Positions 1 through 4,363 of a stretch of 4,363 nt of DNA are shown here, one piece after another. The position numbers and the translations under genes were made by a program. The notes beneath the pieces are model-generated. The model was not told the origin of the DNA. It saw only the letters and a program-made list of their open reading frames with translations, and ran no database searches. The stretch is from the IMG/VR virus record IMGVR_UViG_2609459822_000009; one strand, 5' to 3'. Positions within the stretch are counted from its first letter, which is position 1, and each line of letters starts with the position of its first letter. Source of the stretch: a virus (lineage: Duplodnaviria > Heunggongvirae > Uroviricota > Caudoviricetes).

Positions 1-11
1 CTACAAAAATA

Positions 12-689
12 ATGTCCATCATTTTTAATGGACACTATCGTATGAAACACCGGACCTGGATCACTGAAGCTTTACGTCTTCACTTTGAAGAACATTTACC
101 CCGGGTTGTGGCCGGGCGTCGCCTGGGTGTACCAAAATCAACAGTTTGTAGTATGTTCGTGCGCTTTCGGAGAGCTGGCCTTTCGTGGCCTTTGCCCGCA
201 GGCATGTCGGAGCAGGAACTTGATGCCTGCCTTTACGGACAATTTTCCACGGTACCAGTCGTACGTCCTGAAAGCACCGTTATATCCGAAGCCCCCGTGG
301 TAAAAAAACGTCCCCGGCGGCCCAACTTCCCTTATGAGTTTAAAATCGCCTTAGTGGAGCAGTCACTGCAGCCCGGAGCCTGTGTGGCGCAGATCGCCCG
401 GGAAAACGGAATCAACGATAACCTGCTCTTCAACTGGCGCCATCAATACCGGAAAGGTGGCCTGCTGCCTTCCGGAAAAAATATGCCGGCACTGCTTCCC
501 GTGACGTTAACGCCGGAGCCGGATAATAAAATCCCGGCCCCCGCACAGGAACCAGAGCGGATAAATACACCGTCCGACAGTCTGTGTTGTGAGCTGGTTC
601 TGCCGGCCGGAACTCTCAGGCTTAAAGGTAAACTGACGCCGGCGTTATTACAGACACTTATCCGCGAAATAAAAGGGAGCAGCCACTGA
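12..689 (+). CDS. tnpA: IS66-family accessory protein TnpA (orf1), helix-turn-helix protein; start uncertain and frame is open to the window edge
   Basis: 225-codon frame. The C-terminal ~130 aa (KKRPRRPNFPYEFKIALVEQSLQPGACVAQIARENGINDNLLFNWRHQY ... ELVLPAGTLRLKGKLTPALLQTLIREIKG) has the layout I recall for IS66 Orf1: an HTH followed by a conserved C-terminal motif. The N-terminal ~95 aa holds a second HTH-like segment (AGRRLGVPKSTVCSMFVRFRRAG). No Shine-Dalgarno precedes ATG 12 or ATG 42, and there is no in-frame stop between position 3 and 12, so the true start may be 42, 204 or upstream of the window. Stop TGA at 687-689. Confidence 0.8.
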   Translation: MSIIFNGHYRMKHRTWITEALRLHFEEHLPRVVAGRRLGVPKSTVCSMFVRFRRAGLSWPLPAGMSEQELDACLYGQFSTVPVVRPESTVISEAPVVKKRPRRPNFPYEFKIALVEQSLQPGACVAQIARENGINDNLLFNWRHQYRKGGLLPSGKNMPALLPVTLTPEPDNKIPAPAQEPERINTPSDSLCCELVLPAGTLRLKGKLTPALLQTLIREIKGSSH

Positions 690-1036
690 TGATATCTCTC
701 CCTGCAGGTTCGCGTATCTGGCTGGTTGCAGGTATCACCGATATGCGAAATGGCTTTAACGGCCTGGCATCAAAAGTTCAGAACGTCCTGAAGGATGACC
801 CGTTCTCCGGACACCTGTTCATCTTCCGCGGACGCCGGGGTGACCAGATAAAAGTGTTGTGGGCTGACAGTGACGGACTGTGCCTCTTCACCAAACGCCT
901 GGAGCGGGGCCGCTTCGTCTGGCCAGTCACCCGTGACGGCAAGGTGCACCTTACTCCGGCTCAGTTATCCATGCTTCTTGAAGGTATCAACTGGAAGCAC
1001 CCGAAACGAACGGAACGCGCTGGAATCCGCATATAA
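689..1036 (+). CDS. tnpB: IS66-family accessory protein TnpB (orf2)
   Basis: 115-aa ORF whose ATG (689-691) overlaps the tnpA stop (TGATG), as is typical for IS66 orf1/orf2. The protein (MISLPAGSRIWLVAGITDMRNGFNGLASKVQ ... FIFRGRRGDQIKVLWADSDGLCLFTKRLE) matches the conserved IS66 Orf2 signature as I recall it. Stop TAA 1034-1036. Confidence 0.9.
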   Translation: MISLPAGSRIWLVAGITDMRNGFNGLASKVQNVLKDDPFSGHLFIFRGRRGDQIKVLWADSDGLCLFTKRLERGRFVWPVTRDGKVHLTPAQLSMLLEGINWKHPKRTERAGIRI

Positions 1037-1055
1037 CCCGTTGTAAAGTGAGGAT

Positions 1056-2627
1056 ATGGACACCTCACTTGCTCATGAGAACGCCCGCCTGCGGGCACTG
1101 TTGCAGACGCAACAGGACACCATCCGCCAGATGGCTGAATACAACCGCCTGCTCTCACAGCGGGTGGCGGCTTATGCTTCCGAAATCAACCGGCTGAAGG
1201 CGCTGGTTGCGAAACTGCAACGTATGCAGTTCGGTAAAAGCTCAGAAAAACTTCGTGCAAAAACCGAACGGCAGATACAGGAAGCACAGGAGCGAATCAG
1301 CGCACTTCAGGAAGAAATGGCGGAAACGCTGGGTGAGCAATATGACCCGGTACTGCCATCCGCCCTGCGCCAGTCTTCAGCCCGTAAACCGTTACCGGCC
1401 TCACTTCCCCGTGAAACCCGGGTTATCCGGCCGGAAGAGGAATGCTGTCCTGCCTGTGGTGGTGAACTCAGTTCTCTGGGATGTGATGTGTCAGAGCAAC
1501 TGGAGCTTATCAGCAGCGCCTTTAAGGTTATCGAAACACAACGTCCGAAACAGGCCTGTTGCCGGTGCGACCATATCGTGCAGGCACCAGTACCTTCAAA
1601 ACCCATTGCACGCAGTTATGCCGGAGCGGGGCTTCTGGCCCATGTTGTCACCGGGAAATATGCAGACCATCTGCCGTTATACCGCCAGTCAGAAATATAC
1701 CGTCGTCAGGGAGTGGAGCTGAGCCGTGCCACACTGGGGCGCTGGACAGGTGCTGTTGCTGAACTGCTGGAGCCGCTGTATGACGTCCTGCGCCAGTATG
1801 TGCTGATGCCCGGTAAAGTCCATGCTGATGATATCCCCGTCCCGGTCCAGGAGCCGGGCAGCGGTAAAACCCGGACAGCCCGGCTGTGGGTCTACGTCCG
1901 TGATGACCGTAACGCCGGTTCACAGATGCCCCCGGCGGTCTGGTTCGCGTACAGTCCGGACCGGAAAGGTATCCATCCACAAAATCACCTGGCCGGTTAC
2001 AGCGGTGTGCTTCAGGCCGATGCTTACGGTGGTTACCGGGCGTTATACGAATCCGGCAGAATAACGGAAGCCGCGTGTATGGCTCATGCCCGGAGAAAAA
2101 TCCACGATGTGCATGCAAGAGCGCCCACCTACATCACCACGGAAGCCCTGCAGCGTATCGGTGAACTGTATGCCATCGAGGCAGAGGTCCGGGGCTGTTC
2201 AGCAGAACAGCGTCTGGCGGCAAGAAAAGCCAGAGCCGCGCCACTGATGCAGTCACTGTATGACTGGATACAGCAACAGATGAAAACACTGTCGCGTCAC
2301 TCAGATACGGCAAAAGCGTTCGCATACCTGCTGAAACAGTGGGATGCACTGAACGTGTACTGCAGTAATGGCTGGGTGGAAATCGACAACAACATCGCAG
2401 AGAACGCCTTACGGGGAGTGGCCGTAGGCCGGAAAAACTGGATGTTCGCGGGTTCCGACAGCGGTGGTGAACATGCGGCGGTGTTGTACTCGCTGATCGG
2501 CACATGCCGTCTGAACAATGTGGAGCCAGAAAAGTGGCTGCGTTACGTCATTGAACATATCCAGGACTGGCCGGCAAACCGGGTACGCGATCTGTTGCCC
2601 TGGAAAGTTGATCTGAGCTCTCAGTAA
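1056..2627 (+). CDS. tnpC: IS66-family DDE transposase TnpC (orf3)
   Basis: 523-aa ORF with the expected IS66 transposase architecture. N-terminal coiled-coil/leucine-zipper-like region (aa ~8-95). Cys cluster C130, C131, C134, C143 ... C168, C169, C171 (zinc-finger-like). Candidate catalytic residues in VHADD (D258/D259, nt 1827-1832), LQADAYGGY (D322, nt 2019-2021) and NNIAENALR (E449, nt 2400-2402). GTGAGGA lies just upstream of the ATG, though the spacing is short. Stop TAA 2625-2627. Confidence 0.93.
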
Positions 2628-2637
2628 ATATCAATAC

Positions 2638-2657
2638 GGTTCTGACGAGTCGCTTAC
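2638..2657. repeat. Right terminal inverted repeat of the IS66-family element (inner boundary approximate)
   Basis: GGTTCTGACGAGTCGCTTAC ends in the reverse complement of GTAAGCG. It lies between the tnpC stop (2627) and the point where phage U coding sequence resumes (2658). The repeat length cannot be fixed without the left end, which is outside the window. Confidence 0.6.
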
Positions 2658-2951
2658 GATTTTCCGGCAGTTGCCGTTTATCTCACCGGCGCTGAATACA
2701 CGGGCGAAGAGCTGGACAGCGATACCTGGCAGGCGGAGCTGCATATCGAAGTTTTCCTGCCTGCTCAGGTGCCGGATTCAGAGCTGGATGCGTGGATGGA
2801 GTCCCGGATTTATCCGGTGATGAGCGATATCCCGGCACTGTCAGATTTGATCACCAGTATGGTGGCCAGCGGCTATGACTACCGGCGCGACGATGATGCG
2901 GGCCTGTGGAGTTCAGCCGATCTGACTTATGTCATTACCTATGAAATGTGA
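2658..2951 (+). pseudogene. U: Lambda-like tail terminator (minor tail protein U) gene, 3' fragment only; interrupted by the IS66-family insertion
   Basis: From 2658 the frame reads [97 protein letters not shown] and stops at TGA 2949-2951. I recognise this as residues ~35-131 of phage lambda gpU. The 5' ~34 codons are absent from the window and replaced by IS sequence. The ORF-track entry 2769..2951 is only the part after the first internal Met. Confidence 0.85.
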
Positions 2952-2958
2952 GGACGCT

Positions 2959-3699
2959 ATGCCTGTACCAAATCCTACAATGCCGGTGAAAGGTGCCGGG
3001 ACCACCCTGTGGGTTTATAAGGGGAGCGGTGACCCTTATGCGAATCCGCTTTCAGACGTTGACTGGTCGCGTCTGGCTAAAGTTAAAGACCTGACGCCCG
3101 GCGAACTGACCGCTGAGTCCTATGACGACAGCTATCTCGATGATGAAGATGCAGACTGGACTGCGACCGGGCAGGGGCAGAAATCTGCCGGAGATACCAG
3201 CTTCACGCTGGCGTGGATGCCCGGAGAGCAGGGGCAGCAGGCGCTGCTGGCGTGGTTTAATGAAGGTGATACCCGTGCCTATAAAATCCGCTTCCCGAAC
3301 GGCACGGTCGATGTGTTCCGTGGCTGGGTCAGCAGTATCGGTAAGGCGGTGACGGCGAAGGAAGTGATTACCCGCACGGTGAAGATCACCAATGTGGGAC
3401 GTCCGTCGATGGCAGAAGATCGCAGCACGGTGACGGCGACAACCGGCATGACGGTGACACCCGCCAGTGCTTCCGTAGTGAAAGGGCAGAGCACCACGCT
3501 GACCGTGGCATTCCAGCCGGAGGGCGCAACCGACAAGAGCTTCCGTGCGGTGTCTGCGGATAAAACAAAAGCCACCGTGTCGGTCAGTGGTATGACCATC
3601 ACCGTGAAAGGTGTTGCTGCAGGCAAGGTCAACATTCCGGTCGTATCTGGTAATGGTGAGTTTGCTGCGGTTGCAGAAATCAACGTCACCGCCAGTTAA
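2959..3699 (+). CDS. V: Major tail (tube) protein V, lambda gpV-like, with C-terminal Ig-like domain
   Basis: 246-aa ORF beginning [45 protein letters not shown]..., recognised as lambda gpV. GAGG at 2950-2953 sits 5 nt before ATG 2959. The track ORF starts at 2929, but that ATG is inside U and has no RBS. The C-terminal ~90 aa is Thr/Val/Ser-rich with a beta-strand pattern consistent with the known Ig-like domain of gpV. Stop TAA 3697-3699. Confidence 0.93.
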
Positions 3700-3714
3700 T
3701 CCGGAGAGTCAGCG

Positions 3715-4137
3715 ATGTTCCTGAAAACCGAATCATTTGAACATAACGGTGTGACCGTCACGCTTTCTGAACTGTCAGCCCTGCAGCGTATTGAGCATCT
3801 CGCCCTGATGAAACGGCAGGCAGAACAGGCGGAGTCAGACAGCAACCGGAAGTTTACTGTGGAAGACGCCATCAGAACCGGCGCGTTTCTGGTGGCGATG
3901 TCCCTGTGGCATAACCATCCGAAGAAGACAAAGCTGCCTTCCATGAATGAAGCCGTTAAACAGATTGAGCAGGAAGTGCTTACCACCTGGCCCACAGAGG
4001 CAATTTCTCATGCTGAAAACGTGGTGTACCGGCTGTCCGGTATGTATGAGTTTGTTGTGAATAATACCCCTGAACAGGCAGAGGACGCCGGGCCTGCAGA
4101 GCCTGTTTCTGCGGGAAAGTGTTCGACGGTGAGCTGA
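3715..4137 (+). CDS. G: Tail assembly chaperone G (lambda gpG-like)
   Basis: 140-aa ORF MFLKTESFEHNGVTVTLSELSALQRIEHLALMKRQAEQAE...PVSAGKCSTVS, recognised as lambda gpG. GGAG at 3703-3706 sits 8 nt before ATG 3715. Contains the slippery heptamer near its 3' end. Stop TGA 4135-4137. Confidence 0.93.
   Translation: MFLKTESFEHNGVTVTLSELSALQRIEHLALMKRQAEQAESDSNRKFTVEDAIRTGAFLVAMSLWHNHPKKTKLPSMNEAVKQIEQEVLTTWPTEAISHAENVVYRLSGMYEFVVNNTPEQAEDAGPAEPVSAGKCSTVS
4113..4119 (+). promoter_or_regulatory. Programmed -1 ribosomal frameshift slippery heptamer G GGA AAG (G to G-T)
   Basis: The heptamer GGGAAAG sits in the G reading frame as G|GGA|AAG (codons GCG GGA AAG at 4111-4119), 18 nt upstream of the G stop. 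This is the position and sequence of the well-characterised lambda G/G-T frameshift site. Confidence 0.85.
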
Positions 4138-4363
4138 GTTTTGCCCTGAAACTGGCGCGTGAGATGGGGCGACCCGACTGGCGCGCCATGCTTGCCGGGA
4201 TGTCATCCACGGAGTATGCCGACTGGCACCGCTTTTACAGTACCCATTATTTTCATGATGTTCTGCTGGATATGCACTTTTCCGGGCTGACGTACACCGT
4301 GCTCAGCCTGTTTTTCAGCGATCCGGATATGCATCCGCTGGATTTCAGTCTGCTGAACCGGCG
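4113..4363 (+). CDS. T: T-frame segment of the G-T tail assembly fusion protein, reached by -1 ribosomal frameshift from G; 3'-partial (runs off window end)
   Basis: The -1 frame from 4113 is open to the window end and reads (GK)VFDGELSFALKLAREMGRPDWRAMLAGMSSTEYADWHRFYSTHYFHDVLLDMHFSGLTYTVLSLFFSDPDMHPLDFSLLNRR, recognised as the T portion of lambda gpG-T. There is no independent start codon or RBS, consistent with expression only by frameshifting. Confidence 0.85.

Follow-up and report, generated by a model that had tools for sequence, protein, structure and literature searches.

We found that the 4,363-nucleotide stretch analysed here (the window, meaning this stretch at its full length) joins the right end of an ISCro1 element of the IS66 family to the interior of gene U, the tail terminator gene of a lambda-like prophage, and very probably this junction was left by a single 2,699-bp ISCro1 that transposed into U and duplicated the 8-mer GATTTTCC. 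The element ends at position 2657 with ...GACGAGTCGCTTAC and the phage sequence begins with GATTTTCC at 2658-2665, as read from the window; the initial annotation had already placed the junction there, and its call is confirmed to the base. Given a named insertion sequence, a known property of its family and a well-known phage gene, the finding itself is already known: this is one more ISCro1 insertion that would make a lambda-like prophage tail-defective, and there is very little new in it besides a clean junction for use as a strain-typing marker. The sole part that might be new is a possible target preference of ISCro1, described in the last section.

Identity of the Element

ISCro1 is an IS66-family element first named in Citrobacter rodentium ICC168 and common in E. 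coli. The window holds nt 43-2699 of this element, because the full copies in loci L001, L002 and L003 start 42 nt earlier, with GTAACCGGCTCATTTAAACCGTCTGGTCTGTTTCCTCCGGCT, and then run on into window position 1; the element therefore begins 42 bp before the window, and the part outside contains the left inverted repeat. Over 2,657 nt, the IS part of the window shows 0-4 mismatches against 28 full copies and 0 against 8 copies. The initial annotation had left the element to be named and measured, and it is ISCro1, with 2,699 bp in full copies, the name being taken from the PGAP/RefSeq label “IS66-like element ISCro1 family” on the matched, near-identical copies. An ISCro1 of 2,699 bp with an 8-bp duplication has already been published (PMC12115866). 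The window element has the same length, the same tnpA-tnpB-tnpC order and the same termini as ISCro1, with no difference in the element itself, and only its insertion site is particular.

The assignment to the IS66 family, also proposed at first reading, holds for all three proteins, with TnpC matching PF03050 and NF033517, TnpB matching PF05717 and TnpA matching NF038385 (Table 1). TnpC carries the IS66-type catalytic domain, and tnpA and tnpB lie upstream of tnpC and are coupled, the tnpA stop TGA (687-689) and the tnpB ATG (689-691) sharing 1 nt. Compared with IS66 and IS679, the latter reportedly of the same build, the window element shares the three-ORF layout, the tnpA-tnpB translational coupling, the imperfect repeats starting with GTAA and, in the ISCro1 copies sampled, the 8-bp duplication, and its TnpC is likewise a DDE transposase with leucine-zipper and zinc-finger regions; it differs in its longer TnpA (225 aa), which is of the NF038385 type rather than the shorter NF047595 type. 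The termini of IS66 and IS679, as Han et al. are said to have described them in 2001, are imperfect repeats that start with GTAA.

The TnpA of the window (12-689) has an N-terminal extension of about 100 residues ahead of HTH_Tnp_1 (residues 102-159), and this extension is covered by NCBIfam model NF038385 and not by the shorter IS66 TnpA model NF047595. The helix-turn-helix-like N-terminus of the 225-aa ORF had raised the idea that window 1-250 is a piece of some other IS fused to the IS66 element; this is ruled out, given that NF038385 spans TnpA residues 13-206 and that the full copies are colinear from nt 1.

Table 1. Features of the window, with their positions and the basis of each assignment.
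Feature	Position	Strand	Basis or remark
ISCro1 (IS66 family), nt 43-2699 of 2,699 bp	1..2657	+	near-identical full copies
tnpA, accessory protein with helix-turn-helix, 225 aa	12..689	+	NF038385 IS66_access_TnpA, 294.5 bits (cut-off 150); PF01527
tnpB, IS66 Orf2-type accessory protein, 115 aa	689..1036	+	PF05717, E=4.7e-40; NF033819, 128.9 bits (cut-off 50)
tnpC, DDE transposase, 523 aa, intact	1056..2627	+	PF13007, PF13005, PF03050 (E=2.5e-103), PF13817; NF033517, 477.9 bits (cut-off 180)
Right terminal inverted repeat (IRR)	2632..2657	+	reverse complement = GTAAGCGACTCGTCAGAACCGTATTG
Right-hand duplication copy GATTTTCC = gpU nt 103-110	2658..2665	+	single copy in uninterrupted allele L004, L012
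gpU (tail terminator) 3' fragment, residues 35-131 + stop, pseudogene	2658..2951	+	100% identical to PDB 1Z1Z 35-131
gpV, major tail tube protein, intact	2959..3699	+	PF16461 + PF02368; exact protein in many lambdoid prophages
gpG, tail assembly chaperone, intact	3715..4137	+	PF06894, E=1.1e-59
gpT start (G-T frameshift partner), cut by window end	4119..4363	+	position compared with annotated T in L001, L004

The Right Junction and the Terminal Repeats

The edges of the megablast matches, the right ends of other copies and the gpU translation all agree with the IS ending at 2657 and the phage DNA starting at 2658. By megablast, ISCro1 copies in other contexts give matches that stop exactly at 2657 (H26, H27), and the Stx phage PPwrbA_EC3734, with 99.9% identity over window 1-2657, stops at the same IS edge; conversely, matches to the lambdoid phages 2G7b and 434 and to many lambda relatives begin exactly at 2658 (H28-H45). 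The right end ...GAGTCGCTTAC is the same in 30 complete ISCro1 copies, with the target duplication directly after it. The boundary is fixed at 2657/2658 because a shift of one base spoils the 8/8 match at the surrogate left junctions in L049 and L038, which are described below.

A search of the whole window found a single occurrence of GATTTTCC, with no second copy, and there is no left inverted repeat within window 1-4363. The 8-mer AATTTTCC at 241-248 was considered as a second duplication copy and rejected, since it lies inside tnpA and its 5 matches, against 3.06 expected, are at chance level.

The left repeat, GTAACCGGCTCATTTAAACCGTCTGG, was taken from sequence-identical full copies; it matches the IRR in 18/26 positions, and both start with GTAA. 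The initial annotation had predicted a left end starting with GTAAGCG, and in this detail it was mistaken, because the inverted repeats are imperfect: the actual left end, GTAACCGGCTC..., starts with GTAACCG, whereas reverse-complementing the right end gives GTAAGCG.

The Target Duplication

Flanks were taken from every complete copy fetched, that is, from 13 loci plus 18 around gpU, giving 31 loci including one tandem dimer. All complete single copies (30/30) were exactly 2,699 bp long and flanked by perfect 8-bp direct repeats, and these 30 copies span at least 27 distinct sites. The expectation of the initial annotation that IS66-family elements duplicate 8 bp is thus upheld in ISCro1, both by these 30/30 copies and by the published case (PMC12115866). 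For IS66 itself, an 8-bp duplication is given in a later paper in a passage citing Machida 1984 (PMC6778807).

The tandem dimer is in E. coli O103:H2 strain 129 (L027 3371-8762, NZ_AP038976.1), where two head-to-tail ISCro1 copies lie in gpU with TACACGGG as both outer flanks. Of the two, the first is complete, and 6 nt (GTAACC) are missing from the start of the second at the joint of right end and left end; the dimer could be a structure resembling an (IS)2-type intermediate, or could come from a later deletion.

The uninterrupted prophages L004 and L012 show 0/1,706 mismatches against window 2658-4363, and they carry the empty site GAGGCG GATTTTCC GGCAGTTG, with one 8-mer at U nt 103-110; around the target, their intact gpU reads ...GATGAGGCG GATTTTCC GGCAGTTGCC.... 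This allele represents the state before insertion. The 8-mer GATTTTCC is found at this site in three settings, at the right junction in the window, at the left junction in L049 and L038, and at the empty site in L004. With the right junction placed at U nt 103 by the window and the left one at U nt 110 by L049 and L038, the duplication at this site is defined as GATTTTCC, although not for the window's own genome.

The Left Junction in Other Assemblies

L049 (three samples) contains the left junction that was predicted, ...GGCGGATTTTCC/GTAACCGGCTC..., and so, as a remnant, does L038. In L049 (Logan SRR7551177, one contig in 3 samples), the contig reads ...GATGAGGCGGATTTTCC/GTAACCGGCTCATTTAAACCGTCTGGT in the orientation of the window and ends at the repeat. 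L038 (GCA_000601355.1) has the same left junction as L049, with 22 nt of IS only. In a third assembly, L039 (Logan ERR12033407, seven samples), ...GATTTTCC/GTAAGCGACTCGTCAGAACCGTAT is the inverted right end, that is, an insertion in the opposite orientation.

L049 need not show the same event as the window, because the two sequences do not overlap, L049 ending at IS nt 27 and the window starting at IS nt 43, and because the U 5' allele of L049 is slightly different, with 1 mismatch in 110 nt and 14 in 700 nt compared with phage 2G7b. L038, in turn, carries a different V allele. From these allele differences, L049, L038 and the window may represent independent hits at one site rather than one event.

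The remnant in L038 (8111-8145, JHDK01000003.1) consists of the 22-nt left end of ISCro1 at GATTTTCC, after which the sequence rejoins gpU about 12 nt past the target; the join has a CCGT microhomology and two more mismatches, and the locus gains 10 bp net. Either the IS was deleted here and left a scar, or the assembly is at fault.

A gpU stub of 37 residues was expected from the left junction because, with the duplication in place, the 5' part of gpU would read through ...DEADFP into a TAA formed by CC/GTAA, and exactly this 37-aa stub is on record in public assemblies (P0063, P0077), together with allelic variants. Not every 37-residue gpU is an insertion: L040-L048 and L050-L057, which also have one, were rejected as insertions since they end at a contig end within intact U, and the other 37-aa stub alleles, P0091 and P0100, are likewise truncations at contig ends.

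The viral, genome and metagenome contig collections contained neither the exact right-junction 34-mer nor, in either orientation, the degenerate left-junction pattern, and megablast with each of the two junctions gave no one-piece match in 5,426 complete E. coli genomes or in the phage and plasmid collections. The look-up of the exact gpV protein returned 4,166 blocks, with U intact in all the matches listed; for the TnpA variant there were 775 blocks, and no match listed was beside tail genes. Truncated forms of gpU gave, at 60 aa, no more than an adapter chimera, a gap in a scaffold and a deletion, and, at 51 aa, frameshift-rich assemblies, none with an IS.

Two assemblies deserve mention in their own right. 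In the metagenome scaffold L015 1300-1375 (ENA ERZ28576192 scaffold_26116), a gap of Ns starts one base after GATTTTCC in gpU; this position is probably fortuitous, given that beyond the Ns the scaffold does not pick up at the junction. The public draft contig L014 1-98 (GCA_054769875.1, BAAHUW010000283.1) starts with an Illumina/Nextera adapter, ...AGATGTGTATAAGAGACAG, joined to gpU, so that the assembly was deposited with adapter contamination.

Proposed Insertion Event and Alternatives

In the event that we favor, ISCro1 would have entered U at codons 35-37, oriented like the phage late operon. TnpC, together with TnpA and TnpB, would make target cuts staggered by 8 bp, and repair would then duplicate GATTTTCC on both sides; this chemistry is inferred from the family. 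The left-hand copy of GATTTTCC would directly precede GTAACCGGCTC, at 43-50 bp upstream of window position 1, and the window's own genome is predicted to carry this left junction. The right junction would read ...GAGTCGCTTAC/GATTTTCCGGCAG for insertions in the same orientation and ...AAATGAGCCGGTTAC/GATTTTCCGGCAG for those in the opposite one. The insertion is probably recent, as the initial annotation also supposed, because no ORF is broken, the IS matches 8 other, active-looking copies without a mismatch and the phage flank is undecayed and identical to the uninterrupted allele.

The right junction could also be genuine while the left flank was replaced by exchange with another ISCro1, through an inversion, a deletion or a prophage-prophage event. 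E. coli genomes carry ISCro1 at a median of 3 places and at up to 41, homologous recombination mediated by ISCro1 is documented (PMC12115866), as are unmatched 8-mers around IS66 after recombination (PMC6778807), and gpU 3' fragments beside unrelated genes exist (L025). Nevertheless, rearranged ISCro1 copies must be uncommon, because the 8-mers match in every one of the 30 complete copies sampled, and the right-hand phage DNA is undecayed and identical to the intact allele, so we consider such an exchange unlikely. A more complex left side, with a tandem ISCro1 dimer or a nested second IS, so that the duplication would flank a larger composite, has its precedent in the 5,392-bp dimer in gpU of strain 129; yet that dimer is 1 locus among 31, and window 1-2657 is colinear with a single standard copy, which makes a composite very improbable here.

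Least probable of all, with hardly any weight in our judgement, is an assembly chimera between a contig ending in the IS and a phage contig. IS repeats do break short-read assemblies, and odd joins occur in public data, such as the adapter chimera of L014 and the 22-nt IS stub of L038, but the join in the window falls exactly at the canonical IS terminus, and a chimera is unlikely because this is the very position where the independent assemblies L049, L038 and L039 show ISCro1 ends, in both orientations. Simple transposition of one ISCro1 into U stays by far the best explanation.

Probable Consequences for gpU and Tail Assembly

By this simple transposition, gpU would be split into a 37-residue N-terminal stub, closed by the TAA from CC/GTAA at the IS end, and a C-terminal fragment without a start. 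Observed in the window is the latter, which has 97 codons from 2658, is 100% identical to phage lambda gpU (PDB 1Z1Z) over residues 35-131 and covers PF06141 profile positions 36-130; an in-frame TGA at 2643-2645, inside the IS, precedes it, and there is no in-frame start for it before the GTG at 2769. Compared with a full-length gpU (PF06141, ~131 aa), residues 35-131 alone remain downstream of the IS, and the gpU of the window is a disrupted gene and no functional member of PF06141.

From what is established for lambda, tails should not be completed once the tail terminator is lost, unless another prophage supplies gpU. A prophage with gpU split in this manner should not be able to finish its tails unaided; it would be tail-defective because gpU is divided into a stub and a start-less fragment.

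Target Choice and Reuse of Sites

Other lambdoid ISCro1 insertions resemble the one in the window: in complete E. coli genomes they lie in genes E, FI/FII, Z, U and V, always flanked by an 8-bp duplication, and late genes are disrupted or separated as in the window. They differ in their position, given that the site at U nt 103-110 is absent from 5,426 complete RefSeq E. coli genomes and, besides the window, an insertion there is found only in the draft or read-level assemblies L038, L039 and L049. ISCro1 occurs at at least 16 distinct head-tail sites from gene E to gene V (L001, L002, L027, L063-L077).

At GATTTTCC in gpU, ISCro1 lies one way in the window, in L049 (6968-6998) and in L038 (8101-8132), and the other way in L039 (8101-8134), and the same-orientation junction at GATTTTCC is present in at least 2 different prophage backgrounds. 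On comparison of these sequences, the reuse of GATTTTCC suggests independent hits at one exact site. The 8-mer GTACCAAA, at gpV codons 3-5 (U coordinates 410-417), is occupied in the plus orientation in L066 and in the minus orientation in L071 and L075; all three are complete E. coli genomes, and the 8-bp duplication at GTACCAAA is perfect in every one.

With the whole window as query, 8 of the 12 same-orientation sites fall within the interval from U nt 103 to V nt 111, which makes up about 410 bp of a detectable span of about 4.4 kb, a count to be read in the light of a detection range that differs between queries and of an interval picked after seeing the data. Genes G and T and the remainder of V contain none of the ISCro1 sites detected. 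The cluster from U to V could be a true regional hot spot or the product of a search or selection bias.

We judge it about as likely as not that ISCro1 prefers NNWNNWNN targets and finds, from U to the 5' part of V, a hot spot in which GATTTTCC and GTACCAAA were hit independently both ways, the window then being one case of a recurrent, target-directed inactivation of tail genes. Target choice in the IS66 family has been poorly described so far, and, if true, a symmetric A/T preference together with the reuse of 8-mers would provide a testable statement on how the transposase reads DNA, and would also bear on the contribution of insertion sequences to prophage domestication in E. coli.

The pattern itself comes from 28 oriented sites, where position 3 of the duplication is A/T in 26/28 and position 6 in 25/28 (NNWNNWNN, which is symmetric), the other positions being uninformative. 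Both GATTTTCC and the published TAACCTTT fit A/T at positions 3 and 6, and two sites, TACACGGG, that of the tandem dimer, and CAGCAGCG, deviate from it at both.
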